Source: a phage
Reading direction: 5' to 3' (one strand)
DNA length: 64,000 nucleotides
Sequence record: PZ583742.1
In this document: one piece after another, positions 13,899 to 30,871 of the stretch
Layout of the letters: each line of letters begins with the position of its first letter
Numbering within the stretch: position 1 is the stretch's first letter
Position numbers and translations under genes: made by a program
Notes under the pieces: generated by a model
The model's input: the letters and a program-made list of their open reading frames with translations, nothing else
Databases searched by the model: none
What the model was told of the DNA's origin: nothing

Positions 13899-15322
13899 AA
13901 ACTATTTTATCCCAGCTACTCTTTAACAAGGAATATTTTGTTAAAGTCTGGCCATATCTGAATAATACATATTTTGAAAAGGGTCCTGCAAAGACCCTTT
14001 TTAATACGATTAACGAACACGTAAAAGAATATCAAGCGGTACCAACTAAGACTGCACTTGATATCGCGCTCGACAGTTCTGACCTTTCTGAAGTCGAATA
14101 TGAAGGCACAAAGAAACTCTTAGGAGTCCTGGCCGATACTCCAGAAGACCAGGAATGGTTGGTTAAAGAAACCGAGAAGTATGTACAGAAGTCTGCGATG
14201 TTCAATGCCACATCCAGGATTATCGAAATCCAGAGTAATGCCGAACTTCCGAAAGATAAACGTGATAAACGAATCCCGGATATTGGTGCTATCACCGACA
14301 TCATGCGCGATGCATTGTCTATCTGTTTTGACTCTGCTCTGGGCCATGACTGGTTAAACGATTACGAAGCTCGATTCCAGACTTATCTGAACAAATCGAA
14401 GAAGGTTCCGTTCCGTATTAACATCCTGAATAAAATCACAAAGGGTGGGGTTGAGTACGGTACAGAGAACGTTTTACTGGCTGGGACAAACGTCGGCAAA
14501 TCCCTTGGACTTTGTTCGTTAGCGGCTGACTATCTTCAGACTGGTCATAACGTGCTTTATATAAGCATGGAAATGGCTGAAGAAGTATGTGCCAAACGTA
14601 TTGATGCCAACTTGCTGGATGTATCTCTGGATGATATTGATGAAGGTCATGTGTCATGGGCAGAATACAAAAGTAAGATGGAAAAATGGCGCGCAGCCGG
14701 GACTCTTGGGACTCTGAAGATAAAACAATATCCAACTGGTGGTGCTCATGCGGATACCTTCCGTGCATTATTGAATGAATACAAACTGAAACAAGGGTTT
14801 GTGCCGGATGTGATTATTGTTGACTACCTGGCAATCTGTGCAAGCTCAAGATTGAAAACGTTTACCGAAAACAGTTACGGCCTGATTAAAATGGTTGCAG
14901 AAGAACTTCGTGGCCTGGCGGTCGAGAAAAATGTGGTCCTGTGGACTGCAGCACAGACAACCAGGGGCGCGAACGTTGCAGCTGAGATTGATATGGCTGA
15001 CATTGCAGAATCCTTTGGTATTGCTCACACGGCCGATTTTATGTTGGGTGTTGTTGAGACTGAAGAATTCGCTCAAATGGGTCTGCAGTTAATCAAACAG
15101 CTTAAGTCTCGTTATGGTGATAAGAACTACTATAATAAATTCAAGATGGGTGTTAAGAAAGGTAATCAGCGCTGGTATGAGGTTGATGATGATTCGGCTC
15201 CTAAACAAGGCCCTACGGTTAAAGAAGCCACTGGTGAGATGAATCGCCAGGCTGAAATGAATAGACAAACCAGGGTCAACAGGAGCGACCTGGACGACCT
15301 TGCTGCTCAAATGAAATTCTAA
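13892..15322 (+). CDS. 41: replicative DNA helicase gp41 (DnaB-like)
   Basis: Walker A GTNVGKS; MVETILSQLLF aligns with the T4 gp41 N-terminus; GTG start 6 nt after GAGGTGG. Confidence 0.95.
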   Translation: MVETILSQLLFNKEYFVKVWPYLNNTYFEKGPAKTLFNTINEHVKEYQAVPTKTALDIALDSSDLSEVEYEGTKKLLGVLADTPEDQEWLVKETEKYVQKSAMFNATSRIIEIQSNAELPKDKRDKRIPDIGAITDIMRDALSICFDSALGHDWLNDYEARFQTYLNKSKKVPFRINILNKITKGGVEYGTENVLLAGTNVGKSLGLCSLAADYLQTGHNVLYISMEMAEEVCAKRIDANLLDVSLDDIDEGHVSWAEYKSKMEKWRAAGTLGTLKIKQYPTGGAHADTFRALLNEYKLKQGFVPDVIIVDYLAICASSRLKTFTENSYGLIKMVAEELRGLAVEKNVVLWTAAQTTRGANVAAEIDMADIAESFGIAHTADFMLGVVETEEFAQMGLQLIKQLKSRYGDKNYYNKFKMGVKKGNQRWYEVDDDSAPKQGPTVKEATGEMNRQAEMNRQTRVNRSDLDDLAAQMKF

Positions 15323-15340
15323 AGACCTTCGGGTCTTTTT
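15322..15340 (+). terminator. intrinsic terminator (UUCG tetraloop)
   Basis: AAGACC-TTCG-GGTCTT then TTTT, overlapping gp41 stop. Confidence 0.6.
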
Positions 15341-15350
15341 CATTTAGAGG

Positions 15351-15379
15351 TTTACAACACCATAAAAGGGGTGTACCAT
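15351..15379 (+). promoter_or_regulatory. early sigma70 promoter
   Basis: TTTACA, 17-nt spacer, TACCAT. Confidence 0.5.
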
Positions 15380-15380
15380 T

Positions 15381-15413
15381 ATCCCATCAACTACTGATGA
15401 GGATAATAAAATG
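15381..15413 (+). repeat. conserved 5' leader cassette, copy 1 of 3
   Basis: ATCCCATCAACTACTGATGAGGATAATAAAATG; near-identical copies at 24432-24463 and 28551-28583. Confidence 0.8.
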
Positions 15414-15659
15414 TTATTAGTTAATGTGCATTACCAGTTCAAATCTGAAGAAGCTCTCCAAAAGTATGCTGATATTTGTGAGCATAATAAAAGAACAGCT
15501 GCCATTGTTGGTCTGAAGCCTTTTAAAATTTTGGATTGCACCTTGAACAGAGCAAGGCGCTGGTGTAGTGTTGCCTGTCATGCTTCAGTTGAAGGGAATG
15601 ATTATTTTTTCATTACTTTCAATGCACAAGATTTTCATTTAATTAATGAATTAAAATAG
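15411..15659 (+). CDS. hypothetical protein (82 aa)
   Basis: ORF behind early promoter and conserved leader. Confidence 0.4.
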   Translation: MLLVNVHYQFKSEEALQKYADICEHNKRTAAIVGLKPFKILDCTLNRARRWCSVACHASVEGNDYFFITFNAQDFHLINELK

Positions 15660-15688
15660 TGTACAAGCCCCTTGACTTAGGACATAAT
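15660..15688 (+). promoter_or_regulatory. early sigma70 promoter
   Basis: TGTACA, 17-nt spacer, CATAAT; followed by CCACACTGAGTTAC leader. Confidence 0.55.
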
Positions 15689-15738
15689 GATTCCACACTG
15701 AGTTACACAATAAACCAACTGTTAAAAAGGAAAACCAT

Positions 15739-16041
15739 ATGTTTAATCAAACCGACATGAATCGTTACTATTTTGGACAATTCGCTCGCCGTGATGAAAA
15801 CTGTGCCGCTCTTATCGCATCAGGCATTCAAACTGGTAAATTAATAAAGCTCAAAAGCGATGTTCAACCTTCATCTGTTCGCAGCTCTCTTCGTGAGTAT
15901 CTGCTTGCAGGCGGTGAAGTGTACGTCATCGCCGAACCTTTTGTTAACGTGTGTGATGATTACACAATTAGTGTGACTGTTATGCACCCAACTACCGGGA
16001 AAATTCGTTGTCTGACTATGCGCAACTATGAGTTGGTGTAA
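15739..16041 (+). CDS. hypothetical protein (100 aa)
   Basis: ATG with AAAGGAAAACC upstream; ends at terminator. Confidence 0.4.
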   Translation: MFNQTDMNRYYFGQFARRDENCAALIASGIQTGKLIKLKSDVQPSSVRSSLREYLLAGGEVYVIAEPFVNVCDDYTISVTVMHPTTGKIRCLTMRNYELV

Positions 16042-16049
16042 GTGAATAA

Positions 16050-16071
16050 AGGGGCTTACAGCCCCTTTTTC
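16050..16071 (+). terminator. intrinsic terminator
   Basis: GGGGC-TTACA-GCCCC then TTTTT. Confidence 0.55.
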
Positions 16072-16109
16072 TTATGTTATAATGACTCTATCAACTACTG
16101 GAGAATAAA

Positions 16110-16427
16110 ATGAAAACCATTGATTGCAAGGCAGAATACAAAGTTTATTATCATGGGTCAAGCTCTAATGCTGGAATCCAAAATATGCTTTGCCCTCCTG
16201 ATGCAACTGGTGTTCTGTCAGAAGTTGGACGTAAGAAAAACCTGAATCGTGTGTTCTTTACTGAAGATATCGGTTTGGCTAAGATTTATGCTGGACGTGC
16301 AGCTCGTTCAGTGGGAGGAGAACCTCGTCTTTATCGTGTAATTGCTCCGGTAGATGTGGTTTGTTTAAATGATACTAAAGGCGCCACGGTTTATCATGCT
16401 GAATGGGCCTTCTGCGAGGAAATCTAA
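16110..16427 (+). CDS. hypothetical protein (105 aa)
   Basis: ORF preceded by TGTTATAAT extended -10 and ATCAACTACTGGAG leader; no confident domain. Confidence 0.4.
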   Translation: MKTIDCKAEYKVYYHGSSSNAGIQNMLCPPDATGVLSEVGRKKNLNRVFFTEDIGLAKIYAGRAARSVGGEPRLYRVIAPVDVVCLNDTKGATVYHAEWAFCEEI

Positions 16428-16430
16428 ATG
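16416..16430 (+). repeat. repeated gene-junction cassette GAGGAAATCTAAATG (copy 1)
   Basis: Identical 15-mer at 16626-16640; each encodes a C-terminal EEI, the stop, and the next start. Confidence 0.7.
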
Positions 16431-16637
16431 GAAGAGTTTGCTAAAGTAGTTTTTATCGGTTGGTTTGAAAATGATAGCATGTTTACCAAAGAAATCCGCA
16501 TGGATATATCAGACAAAGAGCATATCATGTGGGCGACCATGAGTTTTGCTGAAGTAAATAAAGCATTGGTAAAAGCCTTTGTCAACGATGTGAAAGTGTT
16601 TGAATGTGATTGGCGCAACAAGCCTGAGGAAATCTAA
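16428..16637 (+). CDS. dmd: Dmd-like antitoxin (discriminator of mRNA degradation)
   Basis: KVVFIGWFENDSMFTKEI...AEVNKALVKAF matches T4 Dmd as I recall it; lies next to gene 41 as T4 gene 61.5 does. Confidence 0.55.
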   Translation: MEEFAKVVFIGWFENDSMFTKEIRMDISDKEHIMWATMSFAEVNKALVKAFVNDVKVFECDWRNKPEEI

Positions 16638-16877
16638 ATGAATATTACCTTAATGAAACCAACTCCCGGTTCTTTTTGGAACAAATCTTTTGGTAAGCAT
16701 AATATGTTTATCCAACGCACTGTAAGCAACTGGGAACTAGTTCTTTCAGTCGGCCACAACGATTATGAACAAGAATACGTAGAGTTCTTCGATTTTCCTG
16801 TGAAGCCTACTAAGCGTCAGATTCGTCAGACAAAACGTAAATTCCGTAAAATTTATTTGGAAGACGCATTAAAATAG
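16638..16877 (+). CDS. hypothetical basic protein (79 aa)
   Basis: C-terminal PTKRQIRQTKRKFRK motif shared with ORF 18021-18242. Confidence 0.4.
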   Translation: MNITLMKPTPGSFWNKSFGKHNMFIQRTVSNWELVLSVGHNDYEQEYVEFFDFPVKPTKRQIRQTKRKFRKIYLEDALK

Positions 16878-16906
16878 TGTACAACAAAGGGATAATGCAG
16901 TATATT
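16878..16906 (+). promoter_or_regulatory. early promoter with stem-loop
   Basis: TGTACA, 17-nt spacer, TATATT; hairpin GGGATAAT/ATTATCCC spans the -10. Confidence 0.5.
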
Positions 16907-16934
16907 ATCCCTATCAACTACTGAGGAGATTGAA

Positions 16935-17228
16935 ATGAAAAAGTTATTAATCGCAGCAATTCTTACCGTAGCATCATGTGGTACAGCTCCAGTTACTGCT
17001 GGACTTGATAAAGACCTTTGTGAGTGGTCTATGACTGCGGACCAGACTGATGTTGAACATCAGATTTATGCCGATATCATGAATATTACTAAACGTGACC
17101 GCCCAGATATGGTTAAAGAAGTATCTGACCAATTGACTTCTGGTGACGTTATGCAGTATAACTATGTTCTGTATTGCGATGCTTCATTTGACAACAGCAA
17201 GATTGTTCAATGGGTTACAGGTGAATAA
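16935..17228 (+). CDS. secreted/lipoprotein-like protein, spackle-like by position and size
   Basis: 97 aa with signal peptide MKKLLIAAILTVASC; position corresponds to T4 sp (61.3). Confidence 0.4.
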   Translation: MKKLLIAAILTVASCGTAPVTAGLDKDLCEWSMTADQTDVEHQIYADIMNITKRDRPDMVKEVSDQLTSGDVMQYNYVLYCDASFDNSKIVQWVTGE

Positions 17229-17229
17229 A

Positions 17230-17667
17230 ATGATTAACAGAAATTTAGTTATCAAAAAACTTCGTTGTAAAAATCCAAATGCACAAGCATACAGGGCGTT
17301 TTGGAGCGACGACCATCAATACCTGGGTTATTTTCTTGTTGATAGTGATGATAGAATTACGTTTGCTCATAAACTTCTTAACAAAGAATTAAACCATTGG
17401 AAAGAACTTATTGCGGTCAAGTCCAAATTATTTTCTTGCAATACAATGCACCAATTGGTTTATTTTTTCGCTGATGGTATTCCTGACAAGGTTGAGTTTG
17501 ACGGGTTTGAATTTAAAGACATCAACCCTGATAATGAATTGAATGACAGTATTGTTAATATGGGTATCCCTGGCAAGTACATCAAAAACAGTCTTTTGAA
17601 AATTCTGGAAACCCCTGTTTATTCAGTTGACGACCAGATTTTTAATGCTTTCATGAAGCGAGATTAA
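17230..17667 (+). CDS. hypothetical protein (145 aa)
   Basis: ATG with GGTGA upstream; C-terminus SVDDQIFNAFMKRD shared with next ORF. Confidence 0.4.
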   Translation: MINRNLVIKKLRCKNPNAQAYRAFWSDDHQYLGYFLVDSDDRITFAHKLLNKELNHWKELIAVKSKLFSCNTMHQLVYFFADGIPDKVEFDGFEFKDINPDNELNDSIVNMGIPGKYIKNSLLKILETPVYSVDDQIFNAFMKRD

Positions 17668-17671
17668 TATG
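17626..17671 (+). repeat. 46-bp direct repeat, copy 1
   Basis: Matches 17978-18023 with 3 mismatches; spans a gene end, stop and next ATG. Confidence 0.8.
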
Positions 17672-18019
17672 AATGATTACAATTTTCTGAATTTTGAACT
17701 GGCGAGCAATAATGATGGTAATGCTCATTATGAATTCCGCGACCCTCGGTTTAATCAGGCGATTGGTTATATTATCGTTAAAGATGATATTATCATAAAG
17801 GCTCGCTCATTCCTGGTAATGAAAGGACCTTATGAAGATACTCGCGGTTATCCGTTTGATAAAAAGAATGTGCGTGATTGCGCCGCCTGGATAACGGGAA
17901 ATCCCAAAATTGGAGTCATGTTATCTGATGAAGCGAACGACATTTTGAATGGGGTAGGCAAAGCTCAAGAACAGTCTGTCGACGACCAGATTTTTAATGC
18001 CTTCATGAAGCGAGGTTAA
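17669..18019 (+). CDS. hypothetical protein (116 aa)
   Basis: Ends with SVDDQIFNAFMKRG, encoded by the second repeat copy. Confidence 0.4.
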   Translation: MNDYNFLNFELASNNDGNAHYEFRDPRFNQAIGYIIVKDDIIIKARSFLVMKGPYEDTRGYPFDKKNVRDCAAWITGNPKIGVMLSDEANDILNGVGKAQEQSVDDQIFNAFMKRG

Positions 18020-18023
18020 TATG
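17978..18023 (+). repeat. 46-bp direct repeat, copy 2
   Basis: See 17626-17671. Confidence 0.8.
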
Positions 18024-18242
18024 TTTGTTTTGACCCAATTCTCTAAAGCAATATATAGTTACTCTTGTCAATGGGAAGTCTTTATTGACACTCCGTCTCC
18101 CAAGTACGGAGTTTTTGGACGAGTAACTACTCAAGCTTACGTTGCTCGACCAACTAAACGCCAGATTCGTAAACTTAAAAAGGCACATCGTCAACTGATT
18201 AAAAGAAGGGAACAATATGAGTGCAATGTGTACGGGCTCTAA
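18021..18242 (+). CDS. hypothetical basic protein (73 aa)
   Basis: PTKRQIRKLKK motif paralogous to ORF 16638-16877. Confidence 0.4.
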   Translation: MFVLTQFSKAIYSYSCQWEVFIDTPSPKYGVFGRVTTQAYVARPTKRQIRKLKKAHRQLIKRREQYECNVYGL

Positions 18243-18408
18243 GATTTCTGTCTTCCAGATTTTTGAAGAATATGAAATCGTATCGCAAGACCAAGAAGCA
18301 ATCCATGTTATCGCTGATGATGGTGTTACCTGGATTATTCCGTTGTATCATGAAGACACTTATGAAGTGACTGATGCAAATGGTGATAAAGCTATCTTCG
18401 TTGTATAA
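18217..18408 (+). CDS. hypothetical acidic protein (63 aa)
   Basis: ATG with AAGGG upstream. Confidence 0.35.
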   Translation: MSAMCTGSKISVFQIFEEYEIVSQDQEAIHVIADDGVTWIIPLYHEDTYEVTDANGDKAIFVV

Positions 18409-18411
18409 ATA
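18404..18411 (+). promoter_or_regulatory. late promoter motif TATAAATA
   Basis: Exact TATAAATA, 17 nt upstream of ATG 18428. Confidence 0.4.
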
Positions 18412-18427
18412 GCGGAAAGGGGGTGTT

Positions 18428-18595
18428 ATGAAAACATTCAAAGATTTTATCAACGAAAATATGGTTGCCGGTGATGCGGGTGGAAACCCAACTAATATCG
18501 CAACAGGTACCACTTCCGGGGCAGTTGTCAATAAAGGCCCTGAACAAATCCCATCAAAAAAGCGTAAGAACAAAGACGATAAACCTACAGTATAA
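18428..18595 (+). CDS. small Gly/Thr-rich protein (55 aa) with basic tail
   Basis: ATG after AAAGGGGG; below the 60-aa ORF-track cutoff. Confidence 0.35.
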   Translation: MKTFKDFINENMVAGDAGGNPTNIATGTTSGAVVNKGPEQIPSKKRKNKDDKPTV

Positions 18596-18613
18596 TGGTC
18601 CTTCGGGGCCATT
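18594..18613 (+). other. UUCG-tetraloop hairpin before gene 61 SD (no T run)
   Basis: AATGGTCC-TTCG-GGGCCATT, 8-bp stem with one G-U pair. Confidence 0.45.
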
Positions 18614-18627
18614 GAAATGAGGAAACT

Positions 18628-19656
18628 ATGTCATATATTGATAAAGAATTTGCAGTCAGAGCTTTATCGTATCAACCACGTTATAGAGAAGTCACCGGGA
18701 GCACATTTAAAGCAAACTGTCGTTGCAAGGTTTGTGGGGACTCCCAGAAAGATTCACACAAGGCTCGATTCTGGGCGTATACTAATCCGACTGATGGCGC
18801 GGTTTACGTGAAATGTTTTAACTGTGACTACTCCACGCATATAAGCAAATACATAAAAGAGTTTGAGCCGGATTTACACCGGGAATATATGGTTGAGAAG
18901 TATAAGGAGAATGCATTTGGGCGACAACGCACTGAAGTTGCAGAAGCTCCGAAAGAACCAGAAAAAACTCCGGTTATTGAGCAGCTTGCTTTTTGTGAAA
19001 GACTCGATACTTTACCAGAAGCACATCCGATAATTAAGTATGTAAAAAGTCGGTGTATTCCGAGCAATGTTTGGAACCGGTTATGGTTTACAAACAAATG
19101 GCCTGCATTAGTTAACTCCGTTAATCCTGGGACGTATAAGAATGAAACGAATGAACCACGCTTGGTTATTCCTATCTTCAACGGCAAAAAAGAAATCGAA
19201 TCTTTCCAAGGACGAGCTCTTCGCAAAGATGCACCACAAAAATATATCACAATCAAAGCTCACCCAGAAGCTTCCAAAGTCTATGGCGTAGACAAGATTG
19301 ATGAGCGTAAACGCGTATGGGTAATGGAAGGTCCAATTGATAGTTTGTTTATCCCTAACAGCATTGCGATAACCGGTGGAACATTAGCATTGGAAGCTGT
19401 TCCTTACCCAGAAACCAGAGTATGGGTGATGGATTCAGAAGCAAGACATCCTGATACGATTAAACGTATGAAGAAATTAGTCGATGCAGGAGAAGCTGTT
19501 ATGTTCTGGGACAACGCACCGTGGCATACGAAAGATATAAATGAAATGATTAAATCGGAAGGAGCAACGCCTGAGCAAATTGAAGCCTATATGAATGATA
19601 ATATTGCACAAGGTTTAATGGCAAAACTTCGATTATCCAAATATGCAAAAATATGA
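18628..19656 (+). CDS. 61: DNA primase gp61
   Basis: Zinc ribbon CRCKVCGDS...CFNCDY; 342 aa; C-terminal LMAKLRLSKYAKI as in T4 gp61. Confidence 0.95.
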   Translation: MSYIDKEFAVRALSYQPRYREVTGSTFKANCRCKVCGDSQKDSHKARFWAYTNPTDGAVYVKCFNCDYSTHISKYIKEFEPDLHREYMVEKYKENAFGRQRTEVAEAPKEPEKTPVIEQLAFCERLDTLPEAHPIIKYVKSRCIPSNVWNRLWFTNKWPALVNSVNPGTYKNETNEPRLVIPIFNGKKEIESFQGRALRKDAPQKYITIKAHPEASKVYGVDKIDERKRVWVMEGPIDSLFIPNSIAITGGTLALEAVPYPETRVWVMDSEARHPDTIKRMKKLVDAGEAVMFWDNAPWHTKDINEMIKSEGATPEQIEAYMNDNIAQGLMAKLRLSKYAKI

Positions 19657-20420
19657 ATTATCTAAAATTATATAATAAATTAATAGACAAAGGCCTCGCA
19701 AGGGGCCTAAACAAAAAGAATATCCCATTTTATACGGAGTCCCATCATATACTACCAAGGTGTTTGGGTGGACCTGACACCGAAGATAATTTGGTATTGT
19801 TATCAGCAAGAGAACATTTTATTGCACATTTGTTACTTTTTAAAATTTATCGACTTTCTAAATTAATGTTTGCTATACACCGGATGTGCGGTGACAAATT
19901 TGATAGCGCAAAATATGAATGGATGCGAAAAGAACATAGTAAAGCCGTTAGTGAACATATGTCAAACTTATGGAGTCAATCCGAGTTTAAAGACAAAATG
20001 TTAATTGCTTTACACAAGCGACATAACGACCACCCTGTGTCTGATAAAACCAAAAGTAAAATAGCTAACTCATTAAAATTGTATTATCAAAATAATCCAG
20101 TTACTGATGAACAACGGCAAAAGAATCGCGATGCACAAATGAGAAGATTTAAAGAAAATCCGCAAACCGAAGAAACGAAAAAGTTGCGGCGAGAAGCATG
20201 CCGAAAGGCAACTGGAACACCGGTTTGTAGATGCGATGAATTTGGTAATATACTTGAAAAGTATAATTCGGGAGCTGAGGCAAAGGAATTATTACAATTG
20301 GCGGGCAATACTCAAAATATATACACAGCTTGTAAAAGAAATAAAAAGACAGGCCGAATGTATAGGTCAAACGGCCATTTTTGGAAGTATCAAGACGAGG
20401 AAGGGATTCCGGTAAAGTAA
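19653..20420 (+). CDS. HNH homing endonuclease with NUMOD-like DNA-binding repeats
   Basis: HNH core ESHHILPRCLGGPDTEDNLVLLSAREHFIAH; basic repeated C-terminal half; ATGA overlap with gene 61 stop. Confidence 0.7.
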   Translation: MNYLKLYNKLIDKGLARGLNKKNIPFYTESHHILPRCLGGPDTEDNLVLLSAREHFIAHLLLFKIYRLSKLMFAIHRMCGDKFDSAKYEWMRKEHSKAVSEHMSNLWSQSEFKDKMLIALHKRHNDHPVSDKTKSKIANSLKLYYQNNPVTDEQRQKNRDAQMRRFKENPQTEETKKLRREACRKATGTPVCRCDEFGNILEKYNSGAEAKELLQLAGNTQNIYTACKRNKKTGRMYRSNGHFWKYQDEEGIPVK

Positions 20421-20596
20421 CCGATGATGGAATGGATATGTTCCATTGTGACCTGGGGTAAGTGTACCCCTTGTGTTGCAGCGATAGGCACAACCAGTAA
20501 GTTCCACAGGAAAACATCAAGAGCTAAAAAGCCCATGATGAGCTTCTTGTCTTTCTTACTGGTTAATTTCCAAATCTGATAGAATAATGTTCCCAT
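20390..20596 (-). CDS. small single-pass membrane protein (68 aa), paralog A
   Basis: Minus-strand ORF; AGGTGG SD overlaps stop of upstream paralog; TM core FLWNLLVVPIAATQGV. Confidence 0.45.
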   Translation of the reverse strand: MGTLFYQIWKLTSKKDKKLIMGFLALDVFLWNLLVVPIAATQGVHLPQVTMEHIHSIIGYFTGIPSSS

Positions 20597-20604
20597 AGTT
20601 CCAC

Positions 20605-20802
20605 CTATATAAGGCCGATTAATGCCAGTGAAACATCTACAACTGATTCGAGCGCGACGACTGGTAATATAACACCATGTGCCATTGCAACTGGAGCAAC
20701 AATGAAGTTCCAGAGTAGAACTAAACAGAGTACCGAAAGGACCAGAATCGTTCGCTTACGACTGCCTTTGATGGCTTGAATTAGACTAGATAGTTTTAGC
20801 AT
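20605..20802 (-). CDS. small single-pass membrane protein (65 aa), paralog B
   Basis: Minus-strand ORF with GGGGGA SD; TM core LLWNFIVAPVAMAHGV paralogous to 20390-20596. Confidence 0.45.
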   Translation of the reverse strand: MLKLSSLIQAIKGSRKRTILVLSVLCLVLLWNFIVAPVAMAHGVILPVVALESVVDVSLALIGLI

Positions 20803-20824
20803 ACATCCCCCTTTCTTGTATTTA

Positions 20825-20848
20825 TGCTTTAAACCAATACGATATAAT
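20825..20848 (+). promoter_or_regulatory. MotA-box middle promoter candidate for gene 56
   Basis: TGCTTTA 20825-20831, TATAAT 20843-20848. Confidence 0.45.
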
Positions 20849-20886
20849 TAACATACAAACAACATGAATTGATAAGGAAAAATATA

Positions 20887-21405
20887 ATGGCTCATTTTAA
20901 TGAATGTTCTCAACTGATTGCTGGTGTTGATAAAGCTCAGGGCGCTTATGATAATGCAATTTTTGAAGGCACTGACCCACTGCAAGTTATGCTTGATATG
21001 CAGAAATCATTGCAGGTTCGTCTGGCTAAAGAAAAACCAGAATATAACGAACATCCTGATAACCTGGCGACTGCTGGTGAAGTTGTTACCTGGCTCCGCA
21101 ACCAGAAAGATTATATTGATGATGAATTCCGTGAACTGATTACTGCATTAGGTGGCATGTCCAATGGCGAGAAAGCTGCCTCGGCCGTATGGAAACCATG
21201 GAAAGCACAACATGGCGAAATGCAGCAAACCCTGATTAATGATTTATCTCCTGAAGACCAGCTCGAAATTAAATTTGAGATGATTGATATCCTGCACTTT
21301 GTCCTGAACATGTTCCACGGTCTTGGACTGACTGCAGAAGAAATCTTTAAATTGTATTATCTGAAAAATGCCGAAAACTTTGCTCGTCAAGACCGAGGTT
21401 ATTAA
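20887..21405 (+). CDS. 56: dCTP pyrophosphatase gp56 (all-alpha NTP-PPase)
   Basis: MAHFNEC...DPLQVMLDMQ...FKLYYLKNAENFARQDRGY close to T4 gp56; start at 20887 after AAGGA. Confidence 0.85.
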   Translation: MAHFNECSQLIAGVDKAQGAYDNAIFEGTDPLQVMLDMQKSLQVRLAKEKPEYNEHPDNLATAGEVVTWLRNQKDYIDDEFRELITALGGMSNGEKAASAVWKPWKAQHGEMQQTLINDLSPEDQLEIKFEMIDILHFVLNMFHGLGLTAEEIFKLYYLKNAENFARQDRGY

Positions 21406-21686
21406 TGGCTCGATTAAATAAACGTCAGCTTAAGAAAGCTCGCAAGAAATATATTAACGATATAATTGAAAATGTTAATACCGAAATCTTCGTAGAACTC
21501 TTATCTAATCAACTAAAACATTTATCTAAACATGAAATTGATACGAATACTGAAAATGCTAAAAATGTAATTGAAACTCATAATGCTTTTGCTAATGCAA
21601 CAGCAGAATGGATGGCGAATCCTACTGCTGAAAATCTAGCTAAAATGACTGAAGCCAATAAAGCAGTTCAAGCCATCAAATTGTAA
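21405..21686 (+). CDS. hypothetical protein (93 aa)
   Basis: ATGG overlap with gp56 stop; basic N-terminus. Confidence 0.4.
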   Translation: MARLNKRQLKKARKKYINDIIENVNTEIFVELLSNQLKHLSKHEIDTNTENAKNVIETHNAFANATAEWMANPTAENLAKMTEANKAVQAIKL

Positions 21687-21688
21687 GT

Positions 21689-21696
21689 TATAAATA
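21689..21696 (+). promoter_or_regulatory. late promoter TATAAATA for soc
   Basis: Exact TATAAATA 32 nt upstream of soc ATG. Confidence 0.55.
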
Positions 21697-21727
21697 CGCC
21701 TGTAATTAAACAACAAAGGAGTTAATT

Positions 21728-21961
21728 ATGGGTGGTTTCGTTAATATCAAAACCTTCACGCATCCAGCTGGTGAAGGTAAAGAAGTTAAAGGTGTTGAAG
21801 TATCTGTTCCGTTTGAAATCTATTCGAACGAGCACCGTATTGCTAATGCACACTATCAGACTTTTCCTTCCGAAAAGGCCGCTTATGTCACCGTAGCGTC
21901 TAGTGCAGCTGATTGGCGAACTAAGAACGCGGCGATGTTTACGCCTACCCCAGTAGTTTAA
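21728..21961 (+). CDS. soc: small outer capsid protein Soc
   Basis: 77 aa; VNIKTF...AHYQTFPSEKAAY matches T4 Soc; AGGAG SD. Confidence 0.85.
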   Translation: MGGFVNIKTFTHPAGEGKEVKGVEVSVPFEIYSNEHRIANAHYQTFPSEKAAYVTVASSAADWRTKNAAMFTPTPVV

Positions 21962-21966
21962 TTATA

Positions 21967-21989
21967 GGGAACCTTCGGGTTCCCTTTTT
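21967..21989 (+). terminator. intrinsic terminator (UUCG tetraloop)
   Basis: GGGAACC-TTCG-GGTTCCC then TTTTT. Confidence 0.6.
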
Positions 21990-22012
21990 GCTTTTAATAG
22001 AAGCGGTATAAT
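21989..22012 (+). promoter_or_regulatory. MotA-box middle promoter candidate
   Basis: TGCTTTT 21989-21995 and TATAAT 22007-22012. Confidence 0.4.
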
Positions 22013-22037
22013 TATTTCAATTACAGAGGAGAATACT

Positions 22038-22235
22038 ATGTTAAACCGTTGGATTAAACCGAACAAAGTTTTAGATGAAGTTATTGCTCATGATGTCCAT
22101 TTTAAGTATGGATTGGGTGTGTTTGATGAGGTTATCGTACATTCATTCATGATGCATGACGATGACTCTTTAGAATTCAATATTGAAATCCGTTGTGATG
22201 ATGGTAAAGTTGAATTTAAACGAGGTTTCCTATGA
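22038..22235 (+). CDS. hypothetical protein (65 aa)
   Basis: ATG with GAGGAG upstream. Confidence 0.4.
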   Translation: MLNRWIKPNKVLDEVIAHDVHFKYGLGVFDEVIVHSFMMHDDDSLEFNIEIRCDDGKVEFKRGFL

Positions 22236-22570
22236 TTAGTTGGCTCAAGAATTTATTCAAGACTAAACCGGGTGAAGGTGTGGTTCCTGTTAGCCTACCA
22301 GATGTTAAACTAAGAGAATATGTTTACATGGGTGATGGTATGATGGAAGAAGTTCGTCGACGACCAGAAAAAGCCGGTAATGTCGGACCAGGCGCATTAC
22401 CATTGAATTCGAAACAGTTAAAAGAGCATCTGGATTCAAGACGTTCTACAAGCCATGTCGATATGACTCCGATTGTAGTCGCTGCTGCCGTCAGTTCGTG
22501 GACTGGTGATTCGTCTTATTCCTCCTATGATTCAGGAAGCTGCGATTCGTCTTCCAGCTCGTGTGATTAA
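22232..22570 (+). CDS. hypothetical protein (112 aa) with Ser/Cys-rich tail
   Basis: N-terminus MISWLKNLF; C-terminal SSYSSYDSGSCDSSSSSCD. Confidence 0.4.
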   Translation: MISWLKNLFKTKPGEGVVPVSLPDVKLREYVYMGDGMMEEVRRRPEKAGNVGPGALPLNSKQLKEHLDSRRSTSHVDMTPIVVAAAVSSWTGDSSYSSYDSGSCDSSSSSCD

Positions 22571-22765
22571 ATGAGAATTACAAGTTGGCTTAAAGATTGG
22601 TTGGTTACCCCAGGGATTGATGATTCCTGGGTGGCCAGAGCCGAGGAAGAAATGCAGCGCGAAGCTGAAGAATGGGCTGCTACAGGGCTTAAAGCCATGC
22701 AGGAAAAGAAGACCGAACGAGCTGCGCTTAAACTGCTGCGTGATATCTACGGGGATAAATCATGA
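22571..22765 (+). CDS. hypothetical protein (64 aa)
   Basis: N-terminus [11 protein letters not shown] paralogous to preceding ORF. Confidence 0.4.
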
Positions 22766-22911
22766 CACAAGAAGAAGCCGAACGCCAGGCAAAAGAAGCA
22801 CTGGATTTGCTTTTGAAAATTGGCAGTAAAATGATGGAAGAAAATGAAAAGTACATCAAGGAAAATAAAGTTCCTGATGGTCCATTAGTTGGTAAGAGGA
22901 AATCATTATGA
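22762..22911 (+). CDS. hypothetical small protein (49 aa)
   Basis: ATGA overlaps on both sides; below ORF-track cutoff. Confidence 0.3.
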
Positions 22912-23390
22912 AAGTATACGAATTAGAATTCTATGTCCGTGATTCGGCTGGGCAAACACGACCTTACTATGCAACAGCCTGTCTTATCTTTGCATATAAT
23001 GGCATGGATTCGGTTACTGAGTTGGAAACAAAATTAATGAACCTGACGATGCCAGAAAACGTTATGCTGAAGGTATTTCATAGAAAAAACGTTAATGTGG
23101 CTGAAGGGTGTCCATTTACTGTTTCCGAAGCTCTGCATATCAAAGGCTATCGCCACCCGGACCTTTATGGCGAAGATACCATTTTCTATAAAGATAGAGA
23201 TAAAATGGCCACTGAACGTCTTCAAGGTCGCACATATCTGATTTCCACTACCGACGACCTTGCTGAAGTTGAACGTCAGATTTGGAAGCACTTTGATATC
23301 GGCTTGCGCTTTACTTTAACAGAAGAAGCTATTCAAGATACTAAAATGCGTGCTCGTATGTATGGTTACGGTCCTATCGGTGGCTACTAA
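22908..23390 (+). CDS. hypothetical protein (160 aa), Mrh-like by position and size only
   Basis: Lies between soc and the ADP-ribosyltransferase pair as T4 mrh does. Confidence 0.35.
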
Positions 23391-23569
23391 TGGATTTATT
23401 TGAACTTTTTGAAGAGCCTAAAGCTCCTACGGAAGCCCGTGTGGACCTAGTTGACGAACTTGATGCGATTATACAGAAGCATGGTTTTAGTCTCCCAATA
23501 GAAGTTCTGCGCGACCTGGCCTCATATTACGACGACCCACCTCCATGGGCACCATGGGTGAAACGATGA
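23390..23569 (+). CDS. hypothetical acidic protein (59 aa)
   Basis: Translationally coupled small ORF. Confidence 0.3.
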   Translation: MDLFELFEEPKAPTEARVDLVDELDAIIQKHGFSLPIEVLRDLASYYDDPPPWAPWVKR

Positions 23570-23799
23570 ACTGGTTAACAAATATTCCCACATCGGCGCT
23601 GGATATCGACCGTAAACAGGCTCATAAGGAAATTGAGCAACAAAAAATTAATCGCTTACAAAGGCTTAAGACTGAATCCGAGACAATTAAAGTCAAACGC
23701 CCGACAGAATCGAAAAGTTCTTACTCATCATATCAATCTCCGATTGGCATGGCCGTAGACATTGCAGTCTTTGGCGTCCCACTTGGAGTATTTAAGTAG
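23566..23799 (+). CDS. hypothetical protein (77 aa) with hydrophobic C-terminus
   Basis: ATGA overlap; C-terminal IGMAVDIAVFGVPLGVF. Confidence 0.35.
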   Translation: MNWLTNIPTSALDIDRKQAHKEIEQQKINRLQRLKTESETIKVKRPTESKSSYSSYQSPIGMAVDIAVFGVPLGVFK

Positions 23800-23855
23800 T
23801 TTACTTACTCCCCTCCTAATGACATAATGGCCTTTCTTACAACAGAGAGGCCATT

Positions 23856-24416
23856 ATGAACATCATCAAATCTGATACCGAACCCAACCAGTTAAAATTT
23901 AGTGAAATGGAGATAGCTTCATTATTTGAGTGTCGCACATCAAAGGTTGATAAGACCTTGCATTCAAACGTTAACTCAATCATCAAGTCAAGGTTATCTG
24001 TACCTGATACAGTCTTGTATCGTGGGGTTACCCAGCAAGAGATTGATTTGTTAGATGAAGCAAAAGAATCAATGCAACCTTTTGAATTTGGAAGGATAAC
24101 CTCCTTTACAGAAGACTATGGTATTGCCAGGGATTTTGCTGCAATGGAATATGTGTCAAGGACTATCATCAGATTGAATCATACAAAAGCTTTTTGTTAC
24201 CATGATGCGATGCGCAAAATCGCGCTTGACGTTCCACTGGAATTCTTCAATACTGCTTCTGGTTCCGAACAGGCAGCAACGTTAAGACGTGAAGAATACA
24301 TGGACATGATTGATTCTGAGCTTGAATGGTTTGTTCCAGTTGACCAGAAATTCGTGGTGGTTGATGCTGGATTTGTTGGTGATTATTATGTTCTTGACTG
24401 TGTACAAGAGCAATAA
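23856..24416 (+). CDS. ADP-ribosyltransferase (R-S-EXE type; ModB-like by position)
   Basis: LYRG Arg, SFT motif and ELE in SELEWFVPV; 186 aa. Confidence 0.55.
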   Translation: MNIIKSDTEPNQLKFSEMEIASLFECRTSKVDKTLHSNVNSIIKSRLSVPDTVLYRGVTQQEIDLLDEAKESMQPFEFGRITSFTEDYGIARDFAAMEYVSRTIIRLNHTKAFCYHDAMRKIALDVPLEFFNTASGSEQAATLRREEYMDMIDSELEWFVPVDQKFVVVDAGFVGDYYVLDCVQEQ

Positions 24417-24431
24417 GACACGTTAAGATGT

Positions 24432-24463
24432 TCCTATCAACTACTGATGAGGATAATAAAATG
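24432..24463 (+). repeat. conserved 5' leader cassette, copy 2 of 3
   Basis: See 15381-15413. Confidence 0.8.
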
Positions 24464-25075
24464 CTGTACACAAGTCACCAATTAGCAGAGTACATCAATG
24501 CAGTTAAATGTGAATATTTTCGTGAAAATACCCAGATTGAAATTGATGAAATTTACTCTGAGTTGGAACAGAGTACACTCTGGCAGTGTATGGAAAATAA
24601 GCCAGACACTATCCAGGAAACTTTGAACAAAATTATTCGTAAGAATTTGACTTCTGCTGTGCCTGGTAAGTTATATCGCGGGATTTCTAAGAAAACTTTG
24701 GCATATCTTGAAACCGTAGGATGTGTTGGTGCTACGATTGAGTTTGACCGTGTAATGAGTTTCTCCAAAGATTTCAGTGTTGCGCGTAACTTTGCTTCCT
24801 TTAGCTTCTATGGAACCAAAAATATTTTCTGTATTAATGATGCACCATTCGCATTTGATTATCAGGAAGCGATTTTTAAAATGATTTGTGCGGCACCTCC
24901 TGAAGAGTTCAACGGACTATATCCTGAAATAACTCGTTCTTCAAACTTGCAATTAGTAAATGATGAAGATGAGATGATGTTCCCTGCGGGAACTACGCTA
25001 CGCGTGGACTCTATTGAGAGCATTTATAGATGGGAAGACTATAAATTATGGAATCTTTCTGTTCTTTCTTACTGA
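24461..25075 (+). CDS. ADP-ribosyltransferase (R-S-EXE type; ModA-like by position)
   Basis: LYRG, SFS motif and EDE in DEDEMMFPAG; start at 24461 after the leader (ORF-track start 24428 lies inside the leader). Confidence 0.55.
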   Translation: MLYTSHQLAEYINAVKCEYFRENTQIEIDEIYSELEQSTLWQCMENKPDTIQETLNKIIRKNLTSAVPGKLYRGISKKTLAYLETVGCVGATIEFDRVMSFSKDFSVARNFASFSFYGTKNIFCINDAPFAFDYQEAIFKMICAAPPEEFNGLYPEITRSSNLQLVNDEDEMMFPAGTTLRVDSIESIYRWEDYKLWNLSVLSY

Positions 25076-25157
25076 AGTATTCTGGGTTAACAAAAGGCCA
25101 AAAACCTTAGAACCATTATACACAGTAAAAATAAAAGCGTTAAAGGTGAAAAAGTAG

Positions 25158-25185
25158 TGTACATAAAAGATGAATAGTGTATAAT
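25158..25185 (+). promoter_or_regulatory. early sigma70 promoter
   Basis: TGTACA, 16-nt spacer, TATAAT; TCATACTGAGTT leader. Confidence 0.55.
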
Positions 25186-25231
25186 GATTTCATACTGAGT
25201 TTTCAATCGTCCGTAAGATGAGAAAAATATC

Positions 25232-25978
25232 ATGACTTTATCAAAAACCAAAACGCTGAAAGTTAAACGTCGTCTGGAACACACTCAAGCTTCCGCTAAA
25301 CGTCGCGGTAAAGACTTTAACCTGGATTTTAATTATCTGGTTAACATTCTTGACCAAAAAGTTTGTGCTTATTCTGGTGAAGCATTTAACAACTCTATTG
25401 AAGGTGAGAAGTTATCATTAGAGCGTTTTAACAATGATATTGGTTATATCAAGGGTAATGTTATTCCTGTTAAAAAGAAATACAATACCATGCGTTCTGA
25501 TTGGTCCCTGGATGAGCTTAAACAACGTCGCGATGATGTTGCTGTAAAAATTGCTCGCCCGTCCGTCAAGAAGATTGAAAAGTTAAATCTGACAGCAGAG
25601 AAATGGGAACAGATTAAAAAGTCGTATACCCATATTAAGAACATCCAACACAAACGTGATAATCGCGTTAAGCATTATGCTCAAATGAGTAAATCAGAGC
25701 AGTCCAAAGAAAACCAATTAAAAATGATTGCTCTGAAGGCTCGCATTGATGGTTCCCGTGTTGCAGAAGGTCATGAGCTTACTAAATTGAATGTCCTGCT
25801 CAAAGGTAATGACTGGAAGGTTACCAAGAAATTAACTAATGCTGAAACGCTTTTTGATTGCTATGATAAAATCATTCAAGGTCTTGAGCGTTTTGAGAAG
25901 ATTGGTTTTATTGGTAAATTAAAACTGAAACGTGGTCTACCTTTGAACGCGTCAATTTTTAAACTGATTAGAGGTTAA
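25232..25978 (+). CDS. hypothetical basic protein (248 aa), Srd-like by position and size only
   Basis: Lies between the transferase pair and dda as T4 srd does. Confidence 0.3.
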   Translation: MTLSKTKTLKVKRRLEHTQASAKRRGKDFNLDFNYLVNILDQKVCAYSGEAFNNSIEGEKLSLERFNNDIGYIKGNVIPVKKKYNTMRSDWSLDELKQRRDDVAVKIARPSVKKIEKLNLTAEKWEQIKKSYTHIKNIQHKRDNRVKHYAQMSKSEQSKENQLKMIALKARIDGSRVAEGHELTKLNVLLKGNDWKVTKKLTNAETLFDCYDKIIQGLERFEKIGFIGKLKLKRGLPLNASIFKLIRG

Positions 25979-25982
25979 TGTG

Positions 25983-26279
25983 ATGTACTACGCATATGTG
26001 CTGGTTCACAAAGATAAAGATGGTTTTGAACGCCCATTGGAATACAATGGAAAGGTTACCTTATACACCACAAAAGCGGGTGCAGAATATGAACTTGCCA
26101 ACTATTCATATACCACAAACCGATATTTAAGTATGGGGCGTATTGAAACCATTTACATTCCTAGGAAGTGGTGGTTTGATAAGCGTGAAACAAAAACAGT
26201 TTTTCCTACTGAAGAACACGCACGAGAATTGAAACAGGTTTTATATACTTTATATGTTAAGCGAGTAAAATTGGCATGA
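25983..26279 (+). CDS. hypothetical protein (98 aa)
   Basis: ATG after GAGG; stop overlaps dda start. Confidence 0.4.
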   Translation: MYYAYVLVHKDKDGFERPLEYNGKVTLYTTKAGAEYELANYSYTTNRYLSMGRIETIYIPRKWWFDKRETKTVFPTEEHARELKQVLYTLYVKRVKLA

Positions 26280-27604
26280 TTAAATTTGAAGACTTGAACA
26301 CAGGACAAAAAGAAGCTTTTGATTATATCACCGAAGCTATTCAACGACGTTCAGGGGAATGTATTACTCTGAATGGTCCAGCTGGTACAGGTAAAACTAC
26401 TCTGACAAAATTTGTCATTGACCATCTGGTGCGTAATGGAGTTATGGGAATTGTGCTTGCCGCACCAACTCACCAGGCAAAAAAAGTTCTATCTAAATTG
26501 TCTGGTCAAACGGCGAATACAATCCATAGTATTCTGAAGATTAACCCGACCACATATGAAGACCAAAACGTTTTTGAACAGCGCGAAATGCCTGACATGT
26601 CAAAATGTAATGTTCTGGTTTGTGATGAAGCAAGTATGTATGACGGGTCTCTGTTTAAGATTATTCTTAACTCTGTTCCTGAATGGTGTACTATTCTTGG
26701 GATTGGTGATATGCACCAGCTGCAGCCAGTTGACCCAGGAAGCACACAACAAAAGATAAGCCCATTCTTTACGCATCCTAAGTTCAAACAGATTCATCTG
26801 ACTGAGGTTATGCGAAGCAATGCTCCTATCATTGAAGTAGCGACAGAAATTCGTAACGGGGGTTGGTTCCGCGACTGTATGTATGATGGTCATGGTGTAC
26901 AGGGTTTCACCTCACAAACCGCTTTAAAGGATTTCATGATAAACTATTTTGGTATTGTAAAAGATGCTGATATGTTGATGGAAAACAGGATGTATGCGTA
27001 CACGAATAAATCAGTTGAAAAACTGAACAATATTATTCGTCGCAAGCTCTATGAAACGGATAAAGCATTTTTACCGTATGAAGTCCTAGTTATGCAAGAG
27101 CCACACATGAAAGAGCTGGAATTTGAAGGCAAGAAATTCAGCGAAACCATTTTTAATAATGGTCAGTTGGTTCGCATCAAGGATTGCAAATACACTTCCA
27201 CAATTCTCCGTTGTAAAGGTGAATCACACCAGTTAGTGATTAATTACTGGGACCTGGAAGTTGAGTCAATTGATGAAGATGAAGAATATCAGGTTGACCG
27301 CATCAAAGTTTTACCTGAAGACCAGCAACCAAAATTCCAGGCATATCTGGCTAAAGTTGCTGACACATACAAACAGATGAAAGCCGCTGGTAAACGTCCA
27401 GAGTGGAAAGACTTCTGGAAAGCCCGCCGGACCTTCTTGAAAGTTCGTGCTCTTCCGGTTAGTACAATCCACAAGGCCCAGGGCGTTTCAGTAGACAAGG
27501 CATTCATCTATACTCCATGCATCCATATGGCCGAAGCTTCATTAGCGAGCCAGTTGGCTTATGTAGGAATCACACGAGCGAGGTACGACGCATATTATGT
27601 ATAA
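26276..27604 (+). CDS. dda: Dda DNA helicase (SF1B)
   Basis: Walker A GPAGTGKTT, Walker B VLVCDEASM; 442 aa. Confidence 0.95.
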   Translation: MIKFEDLNTGQKEAFDYITEAIQRRSGECITLNGPAGTGKTTLTKFVIDHLVRNGVMGIVLAAPTHQAKKVLSKLSGQTANTIHSILKINPTTYEDQNVFEQREMPDMSKCNVLVCDEASMYDGSLFKIILNSVPEWCTILGIGDMHQLQPVDPGSTQQKISPFFTHPKFKQIHLTEVMRSNAPIIEVATEIRNGGWFRDCMYDGHGVQGFTSQTALKDFMINYFGIVKDADMLMENRMYAYTNKSVEKLNNIIRRKLYETDKAFLPYEVLVMQEPHMKELEFEGKKFSETIFNNGQLVRIKDCKYTSTILRCKGESHQLVINYWDLEVESIDEDEEYQVDRIKVLPEDQQPKFQAYLAKVADTYKQMKAAGKRPEWKDFWKARRTFLKVRALPVSTIHKAQGVSVDKAFIYTPCIHMAEASLASQLAYVGITRARYDAYYV

Positions 27605-27836
27605 AGTACATAAAGAAGATTTAGATACTCTTATCTATGGTATTCAGGACGCGGTTGAATTTTTCGAAGATAATCCGACTATCGTCCAACAGGGTAATTA
27701 CGTTTTACTGGAACTGAGTCTTATTCAGAAACGTATGGCCGCGATTGAATATTTTAACAATGAAGAGCCAGGAATTTTTATCTCCGACTATGTTGCTGGT
27801 GAAATTCAGAAATTAAAAGAGATGTGCGATGATTGA
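27597..27836 (+). CDS. hypothetical acidic protein (79 aa)
   Basis: Overlaps dda stop; between dda and dexA. Confidence 0.4.
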   Translation: MYKVHKEDLDTLIYGIQDAVEFFEDNPTIVQQGNYVLLELSLIQKRMAAIEYFNNEEPGIFISDYVAGEIQKLKEMCDD

Positions 27837-28548: not shown

Positions 28549-28549
28549 T
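28521..28549 (+). promoter_or_regulatory. early sigma70 promoter (inside the dexA 3' end)
   Basis: TGTACA, 17-nt spacer, CATAAT. Confidence 0.55.
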
Positions 28550-28550
28550 T

Positions 28551-28583
28551 ATCTCATCAACTACTGATGAGGATAACAAAATG
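28551..28583 (+). repeat. conserved 5' leader cassette, copy 3 of 3
   Basis: See 15381-15413; one substitution. Confidence 0.8.
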
Positions 28584-29590: not shown

Positions 29591-29596
29591 ATTTAA

Positions 29597-29640: not shown

Positions 29641-29669
29641 AATAAACTTATTAACCAAGAGAGAAAATT

Positions 29670-30870: not shown

Positions 30871-30871
30871 C

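Follow-up and report, generated by a model that had tools for sequence, protein, structure and literature searches.

The 64,000-nt phage sequence PZ583742.1, analysed here over its whole length (the window), carries two small open reading frames (ORFs), designated ORF-A and ORF-B, in the interval between gene 61 and gene 56. A sequence-only reading of this DNA had described them as a tandem pair running on the strand opposite to their neighbours, and this arrangement was recovered in our analysis: both ORFs lie on the minus strand, and gene 61, the HNH endonuclease gene and gene 56 are all on the plus strand (Table 1). The best explanation of the locus, to which a probability of roughly 0.6 is assigned, is that ORF-A and ORF-B represent a conserved gene, present here in two copies, that is late-transcribed and membrane-inserted and has a role, still speculative, at the time of lysis.

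Table 1. Positions in the window of the features at the ORF-A/ORF-B locus and of the t-like ORF
Feature	Position	Strand	Basis or remark
Gene 61 (primase)	18628-19656	+	
747-bp insertion with the HNH gene, outside the ORF-A/ORF-B unit	19651..20397	+	blastn against UPEC01, VR7, VR20 and EAWsc9
HNH homing endonuclease ORF	19653-20420	+	phrog_655 homing endonuclease, E = 6e-45
ORF-B, 68 aa	20390-20596	-	phrog_2024 member of the Dhakavirus/Marfavirus type
ORF-A stop codon TAG (20605-20607) with 8-nt spacer	20597..20607	-	Read from the sequence
ORF-A, 65 aa	20605-20802	-	phrog_2024 member of the Tequatrovirus/Mosigvirus type (= VR7ORF033w, 'RB32 ORF030w')
ORF-A Shine-Dalgarno sequence AAGGGGGA	20806..20813	-	Read from the sequence
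Variant late promoter element CATAAATA, C at -13 (consensus TATAAATA)	20819..20826	-	16 nt upstream of the ORF-A ATG
Gene 56 (dCTPase)	20869-21405	+	
t-like ORF, 217 aa	45877-46530	-	Beside minus-strand tail-fibre genes

The 1.85-kb locus was matched at the nucleotide level in Gaprivervirus, a T4-like genus of the Straboviridae. Phages vB_EcoM_RZ, DK-13 and P8 were 92-94% identical across nearly the whole query, and TH41, UPEC01 and VR20 were 97% identical over its right-hand 57%. T4 carries dam between genes 56 and 61, in agreement with the sequence-only reading, and dam is not present in this slot of the phage studied here.

ORF-A and ORF-B do not overlap. The spacer between the ORF-A stop codon and the ORF-B ATG reads GTGGAACT, and the ORF-B Shine-Dalgarno sequence, AGGTGG, overlaps the ORF-A stop codon. 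Reading of this junction revealed no promoter motif for ORF-B, and the junction is near-identical in UPEC01, VR7, VR25 and VR26, with one base different in VR26. The position of the ORF-A Shine-Dalgarno sequence is occupied by AAGGAGGA in relatives. Judging from this organization, the two ORFs are probably carried on one shared mRNA, and translational coupling from ORF-A to ORF-B is plausible.

Family membership, coding status and predicted topology

Both ORFs matched the profile of phrog_2024 along its length, ORF-A with E = 2.5e-26 (positions 1-65 of 65) and ORF-B with E = 6.7e-28 (positions 1-64 of 65). Global alignment of the two proteins gave 22 identical residues in 69 columns, and their local BLOSUM62 score was 83, compared with 23.4 +/- 4.6 for shuffled sequences (n = 2000), among which the maximum was 55. 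The score above the shuffle maximum and the two full-length family matches bear out the proposal that the ORFs are paralogous, and the transmembrane core LWNxxVxPxAxxxGV that they had been said to share was found in both, as LWNFIVAPVAMAHGV and LWNLLVVPIAATQGV.

PHROG 2024 consists of hypothetical proteins from hundreds of Tevenvirinae genomes, whose genes occupy the same slot on the opposite strand with NATAAATA upstream; it has no assigned function and no Pfam model. In most genera the family is represented by one copy, whereas here two types, about 30% identical, stand in tandem. ORF-A is 100% identical to a protein of phage P479, and ORF-B is 75-89% identical to proteins of JS98, Marfa and Potts1. 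ORF-A and ORF-B are members of a catalogued but uncharacterised Tevenvirinae gene family, which is in a lineage-specific two-copy state at this locus.

Scans of ORF-A, ORF-B and the T4 homologue against Pfam, NCBIfam and PADLOC gave no match. A profile search of PDB sequences returned chance matches only (E > 0.4), and Foldseek comparison with viral models recovered family members only, apart from one unrelated 'holin' at a non-significant E = 1.6. No match was obtained by tblastn of the distant homologue P0121 against the phage collection, and no description of the gene was found in a literature search covering ORF030w/ORF033w, unannotated small proteins of T4 and T4 start-site maps.

Within Gaprivervirus, the ratio of nonsynonymous to synonymous substitution rates (dN/dS) was 0.14-0.64 for ORF-A and 0-0.08 for intact copies of ORF-B, with dN = 0 and dS = 0.21 between the window and UPEC01; the Dhakavirus copies gave 0.07-0.15. 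Between genera, synonymous sites were saturated with dN of only 0.2-0.45. These substitution patterns indicate that both ORFs are under purifying selection and that the surviving ORF-B copies are tightly constrained. ORF-A and ORF-B are almost certainly protein-coding and membrane-inserted.

Kyte-Doolittle hydropathy averaged over 19 residues reached maxima of 2.6 in ORF-A (residues 18-40) and 2.1 in ORF-B (residues 19-39); hydropathy is high in the C-terminal tail of ORF-A as well (about 2.0-2.25) and lower in that of ORF-B. The first 17 residues of ORF-A include five basic (+5 charges) and no acidic ones, a layout shared by ORF-B. Lys and Arg are absent from residues 18-65 of ORF-A and from the C-terminal 24-27 residues of the two proteins, where the only acidic residues are E52 and D56 in ORF-A and E52 in ORF-B. 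AlphaFold2 models built on family alignments predicted helices at residues 3-13, 15-41 and 51-62 of ORF-A (predicted local distance difference test (pLDDT) score of 77) and at residues 2-11, 14-41 and 51-62 of ORF-B (pLDDT of 74), the last two helices being joined in both models by a nine-residue loop. Since the last helix, with 12 residues, could not span the membrane, and in view of the positive-inside rule, a single pass with a cytoplasmic N-terminus is predicted, and the two products are best read as bitopic N-in/C-out membrane microproteins. The hydropathy profiles and the models each give one predicted transmembrane helix per protein, in agreement with the earlier description of both as single-pass membrane proteins. 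Across 18 diverse family members, M1, W31, N32, P37 and P47 are invariant and A39 is nearly so. A conserved Asn within a transmembrane helix usually marks a helix-helix contact, and the invariant Asn of ORF-A and ORF-B may do the same.

Distribution, the two-copy state and the HNH insertion

Searches by tblastn with ORF-A matched 693 phage records, 685 of them at a query coverage of at least 80% and mostly from Tequatrovirus/Mosigvirus at about 50% identity. ORF-B matched 116 phage records, and the phages with ORF-B-type sequences include Dhakavirus (JS98, where the gene is also unannotated), Marfavirus, Kanagawavirus, Gelderlandvirus, Mosugukvirus and several Klebsiella T4-like phages. A weaker search added Klebsiella phages of about 162-170 kb (e.g. 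KP179 and KP1), Edwardsiella phage PEi20 and Citrobacter phages. When 1.84 billion representative proteins were searched exhaustively with a profile, the whole family amounted to 16 clusters at 50% identity, and the family is therefore narrow.

In every case examined, the gene is located between 56 (or dam) and 61, directed against the early genes, with its 3' end and that of gene 61 meeting. This slot and orientation are kept in T4, JS98, Marfa, Q7622, SEA1, PM2, VR7 and metagenomic T4-like contigs, and they are shared by at least seven named T4-like genera. In the window, the HNH gene separates ORF-B from gene 61. The conserved unit is a single gene and not a pair, and it is present at this position in nearly all T4-type phages of enterobacteria.

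The T4 copy encodes 66 aa at positions 17738-17938 of NC_000866 (plus strand), within the 310 bp that separate dam from 61, and its stop codon overlaps that of gene 61. The ORF and its promoter together span positions 17709-17938 (locus L006, 2210-2439), with GATAAATA located 21 nt upstream and a strong Shine-Dalgarno sequence. It has the same architecture as ORF-A, to which it is 54% identical over 63 residues; it differs from the arrangement in this phage in that dam lies between the ORF and gene 56 and there is no second copy. The T4 RefSeq annotation has no feature at this ORF, and its orthologue is listed as a hypothetical protein in hundreds of related genomes. The exact T4 sequence was present in a collection of 15 billion proteins only as automated calls on raw assemblies.

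Both diverged types are carried together only by Gapriverviruses. When eight Gaprivervirus loci were read base by base, ORF-A was intact in all eight and ORF-B in four, namely the window, UPEC01, VR25 and VR26. In the remaining loci, ORF-B lacks its N-terminus (RZ), is mostly deleted (EAWsc9), is frameshifted (VR20) or has a C-terminal frameshift (VR7), and a database search revealed further truncated copies in SP18, PSD2001, phage 212, TH55, TH57 and UPEC07. Of the pair put forward in the sequence-only reading, ORF-A is conserved as an intact frame in all of these close relatives and ORF-B in only some of them. The decay of ORF-B in half of these loci, with ORF-A intact, indicates that ORF-B is dispensable when ORF-A is present. 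The two copies may have originated from an old duplication followed by reciprocal loss, or from acquisition by recombination.

The promoter and leader regions of T4 (ORF-A type; L006, 2210-2241) and JS98 (ORF-B type; L007, about 1470-1503) are almost identical, ATAAATATTAATTTAA.AGGAGGATA. Because the T4 and JS98 proteins are less than 30% identical despite their near-identical 5' untranslated regions, this comparison suggests that coding cassettes have been exchanged between conserved flanks.

The HNH gene had been proposed as a possible vehicle by which the pair was acquired. In blastn comparisons with UPEC01, VR7 and VR20, collinearity of the flanks stops at position 19650 and restarts at 20398; in EAWsc9 the flank restarts at 20494, ORF-B being mostly deleted there too. 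Since the flanks are collinear in relatives that do not carry the HNH gene, this gene is a 747-bp insertion. It is absent from UPEC01, VR7, VR20, EAWsc9, VR25 and VR26, and both ORFs are intact without it in UPEC01, VR25 and VR26. Joint acquisition is contradicted by these intact loci and by the clean boundaries of the insertion. The ATG of the HNH gene overlaps the gene 61 stop codon (ATGA), and its 3' end overlaps ORF-B by 31 nt. The end of the insertion replaced the ORF-B stop codon, so that the protein ends in GIPSSS instead of GIPS; these two added serines form a C-terminal extension by which ORF-B differs from PHROG 2024 members elsewhere.

On the other side of gene 56, a 93-aa ORF (21405-21686) is located between gene 56 and soc, and its N-terminus gave a partial match to a PHROG family of the 'virion structural protein' category. 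The segment 21406-21683 is missing in RZ and EAWsc9, and its position is occupied in T4 and VR7 by the segF homing endonuclease gene. This segment is a second indel hot spot adjoining gene 56.

The putative late promoter element

The element upstream of ORF-A, CATAAATA, matches the late promoter consensus TATAAATA at seven of eight positions, in agreement with the sequence-only reading, which had described a motif one mismatch away from the consensus; the mismatch is at -13, a position at which variation is tolerated. In every T4-like lineage examined except Gelderlandvirus, NATAAATA was found 12-21 nt before the ATG, and the intervening sequence otherwise differs. The base at -13 is C in Gaprivervirus, G in T4 and in the Mosugukvirus PM2, A in Dhakavirus, T in Kanagawavirus, T in Marfavirus and two metagenomic relatives, and either C or G in another six T4-like loci from metagenomes. 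With T at -13, the element of Marfavirus and Kanagawavirus is the canonical TATAAATA.

Variation among T4 late promoters is concentrated at -13, and transcripts of the late class are of either polarity, whereas all early and middle transcripts of T4 are of one polarity (PMC2988020, PMC1524935). A minus-strand gene in the early region is therefore expected to be late. A at -13 was reported at 9 of 50 T4 late promoter sites, and C is not among the commonly listed variants (PMC2988020). A T4 differential RNA sequencing preprint gives 150 T4 start sites, of which 22 are antisense (bioRxiv 10.1101/2024.04.04.588121). A sigma-70-type promoter was also considered for the minus-strand ORFs; the sole candidate, matching 9 of 12 positions and located inside gene 56, was set aside because T4 early and middle transcription is of a single polarity (PMC2988020).

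On both strands of the window, VATAAATA, in which the consensus begins with a base other than T, occurs at two sites, compared with 16.4 +/- 3.9 expected, and is strongly depleted; TATAAATA occurs at seven sites, compared with 4.9 expected, and is not depleted. The depletion of VATAAATA suggests selection against accidental near-matches that resemble late promoters. Eight of the nine NATAAATA sites in the window are located 16-39 nt before an ORF start, including those of soc, the tail-fibre genes and t. The conservation of NATAAATA across lineages, together with the rarity of the motif elsewhere in the window, supports the earlier proposal of late expression, and ORF-A and ORF-B are very probably late-expressed.

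The other VATAAATA site of the window (CATAAATA at 63869-63876, plus strand) is not followed by an ORF of at least 40 aa starting within 52 nt downstream. A perfect TATAAATA is present on the early (plus) strand at 18404-18411, 16 nt before a 55-aa homologue of gene 61.1 (18428-18595). The leader of this homologue, gcggaaaggggg, resembles the ORF-A leader, caagaaaggggg, and the gene 61.1 homologue is, on these sequence features, probably late-expressed as well.

Proposed role and alternatives

In the proposed mechanism, RNA polymerase carrying gp55 would transcribe ORF-A and ORF-B as one late mRNA from CATAAATA, and ORF-B would be translated from its own Shine-Dalgarno sequence at the ORF-A stop codon. 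The products would be located in the inner membrane, with the basic N-terminal helix in the cytoplasm, one transmembrane helix bearing the Trp-Asn pair, and a conserved G-x-x-L-P-x-V loop and a short acidic helix on the periplasmic face. More speculatively, the buried Asn could drive self-association or binding to another membrane protein, and the two copies could be largely redundant, which would account for the decay of ORF-B in many Gapriverviruses. This speculative set, in which the protein would modulate lysis timing or membrane permeabilisation without being essential and would not be the primary holin, is offered tentatively. The leading functional guess is thus a dispensable protein with a modulating effect at the inner membrane around lysis, with the odds nevertheless against it.

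Holins, such as T4 T and the class II or pinholin types (S21 68), are likewise small inner-membrane proteins, and they are produced late, as is predicted for ORF-A and ORF-B. The two ORFs share with holins a small size and at least one predicted transmembrane domain. The label 'holin' is attached to family members in one GenBank record and one UniRef entry, in both cases without evidence, and no significant similarity to named holin families was found in sequence or fold (Pfam, PHROG, NCBIfam, PDB profile and Foldseek). The window also contains a 217-aa ORF with a perfect TATAAATA (46549-46556) located 18 nt upstream; its N-terminus, MEPKVGISIPDLLFGLLDRIFKDNATGKV, resembles that of T4 T, and the ORF is a putative homologue of the canonical holin gene t. 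The presence of this t-like ORF suggests that ORF-A and ORF-B are not the primary holin.

Outside the T4-like phages, distant homologues in siphophages were found in late operons, and late-operon placement is a second trait shared by the family. In one siphophage, represented by three contigs (L028-L030), an 82-aa homologue heads a tight operon followed by genes for proteins of 180 aa and 109 aa and for a 161-aa T4-type lysozyme (Phage_lysozyme). In three other loci (L026, L037 and a block of the DCP80 record), tail genes are followed by a transmembrane/coiled-coil protein of about 90-150 aa, endonuclease VII and the family member, after which proteins of 180 aa and 100 aa are encoded in L026 and DCP80. 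In DCP80, the family member is followed at a distance of about 1.3 kb by a T4-type lysozyme gene; in L037, such a gene is on the opposite strand, about 3.3 kb from the family member, and none was found in the stretch covered by L026. In one prophage, the family member occupies the end of the element, with a lysozyme gene 1.5 kb away, and in one short contig it adjoins a RelA/SpoT-family gene. The proximity to endolysin genes is suggestive of a link to lysis.

The DCP80 record (GenBank PQ671644.1, 141 kb) is filed as Gaprivervirus and contains a siphophage-like block (locus L036, record positions 14620-33129) in which a terS-like gene accompanies those for a tail-tip protein, endonuclease VII and an endolysin; the record is probably a chimeric assembly. 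An unannotated 57-aa family member is located in this block at L036 8792-8965. A basic protein of about 180 aa and a second protein of about 105 aa accompany the family member, in varying order, in four siphophage or prophage contexts (L026, L028-L030, L031 and L036). Searches of Pfam and PHROG gave no informative match for these companions, the 180-aa protein having a weak match to a PHROG 'minor tail protein'. The possibility that the transmembrane/coiled-coil genes encode i-spanins, with the family member as the only holin candidate, was considered and dropped, as no embedded spanin gene was found. No transmembrane protein was encoded in the flanks of the siphophage endolysin genes.

Several observations weigh against a role in lysis and against the late class on which it depends. 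ORF-A and ORF-B lack the highly charged hydrophilic C-terminal tail and the dual-start motif of many holins, and in T4-like phages the gene does not adjoin e, t, rI or the spanin genes. Mutants of T4 in t fail to lyse, and the protein is therefore not an autonomous holin in T4. The link to endolysin genes is circumstantial, because two soluble companions (about 180 and 105 aa) travel with the siphophage homologue, no embedded lipoprotein ORF (spanin) was found in the transmembrane/coiled-coil genes of the siphophage loci, and other small transmembrane ORFs are located nearby, within a few kilobases. As for the promoter, Gelderlandvirus has the deviant ATTAAATA, and the putative late class is read from conservation of the motif. 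In the catalogue of T4 late promoters, C or G at -13 is less frequent than A, and the in vivo strength of variant promoters is unmeasured (PMC2988020).

The main alternatives to a role around lysis are exclusion and the assembly or regulation of a membrane partner. An inner-membrane microprotein could protect the envelope by blocking DNA entry or lysis-from-without by later phages, in the manner of Imm/Sp or of the cor/llp-type genes that siphophages carry downstream of their tail genes. The predicted products are small inner-membrane proteins, and Imm and Sp are likewise small proteins of the T-even envelope; sp maps close to this locus, with only a few genes between it and the downstream gene 61 (Pfam T4_Spackle neighbours); the siphophage homologue is encoded just downstream of a tail-tip gene, a frequent place of exclusion genes; and two diverged types at one locus, with one copy turning over, would fit an arms race. 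However, it is well established that T-even exclusion is set by the early genes imm and sp on the early strand, so that a late promoter would act too late, and Imm and Sp differ from ORF-A and ORF-B in predicted topology and promoter class. No similarity to Imm or Sp was detected in Pfam, PHROG, NCBIfam and PADLOC, where phrog_2024 was the only match, and dN/dS below 0.1 in ORF-B indicates strong purifying selection with no sign of diversifying selection; exclusion is considered distinctly unlikely. Alternatively, the protein could bind late in infection to an inner-membrane partner of phage or host origin through the Trp-Asn face of its helix, and serve as an assembly factor or as a regulator of a host membrane protein, a mode of action like that of the bacterial microproteins AcrZ and MgrB. 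Possible partners include a protease, a transporter and the prohead initiation complex at the membrane. The predicted late timing coincides with morphogenesis, and siphophage homologues are placed amid tail and late genes, beside the protein with the weak 'minor tail protein' match. The predicted plan of amphipathic, transmembrane and amphipathic helices with a buried Asn is typical of small membrane-protein regulators. Against this, no partner was identified, a family of only 16 clusters falls outside the T4 core morphogenetic set, and the gene duplicates and sheds one copy freely; this alternative is regarded as unlikely.

The sequence-only reading had suggested a late-expressed membrane module, such as a holin/antiholin-like or exclusion pair, that possibly arrived with the HNH gene; taken strictly, this would be an obligate two-component module. 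The tandem, closely spaced ORFs with probably one promoter, and the 'holin' labels in the databases, would be compatible with such a module, but it is largely refuted by the comparative data: the HNH gene is missing from UPEC01, VR25 and VR26, which carry the two ORFs, and it is a clean insertion, most genera have a single copy, ORF-B is degraded in four of eight Gapriverviruses in which ORF-A remains intact, and the t-like ORF, with its presumed N-terminal resemblance to T, is present elsewhere in the window. It is accordingly rated as highly improbable. The protein-level evidence bears in turn on the notion that the functional product is an antisense RNA made late and extending into the HNH gene and gene 61, the ORFs being incidental. 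The ORF stop codon overlaps or abuts that of gene 61, so that in each genus the transcript would run antisense to the primase gene at its 3' end, and transcription of the two strands is known for some sites in T4 DNA (PMC2988020). This notion is nevertheless extremely improbable, given that the frames have stayed open under protein-level conservation, with synonymous sites saturated and dN/dS of 0.05-0.6, that strong Shine-Dalgarno sequences are conserved, that homologues occur in unrelated contexts lacking a primase gene, and that an Rfam scan of positions 19500-21500 returned nothing meaningful.

A conserved, probably late and membrane-inserted gene with a possible role around lysis remains our preferred explanation. 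A bolder version, in which this late inner-membrane microprotein, overlooked so far in T4 and related phages of enterobacteria, would belong to the machinery of lysis or lysis timing as a new component, with family members forming a new holin class in some siphophages that have no recognisable holin beside their T4-type endolysin gene and the two Gaprivervirus types being alternative alleles with different partners or timing, is doubtful.

The locus illustrates how the interval between genes 56 and 61 is reshaped by homing endonuclease insertions and gene turnover. If a role in lysis timing or at the envelope were true, the gene would add a component to a pathway whose known members (T, E, RI, RIII and the spanins) are regarded as a nearly full set; if there is no such role, it would be one more small T4 accessory gene among many. 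T4 is the reference for phage lysis, late transcription and genome annotation, and a conserved gene is missing from its RefSeq annotation. The copy in T4 makes the gene directly testable with standard genetics, which is the most useful by-product of this analysis.

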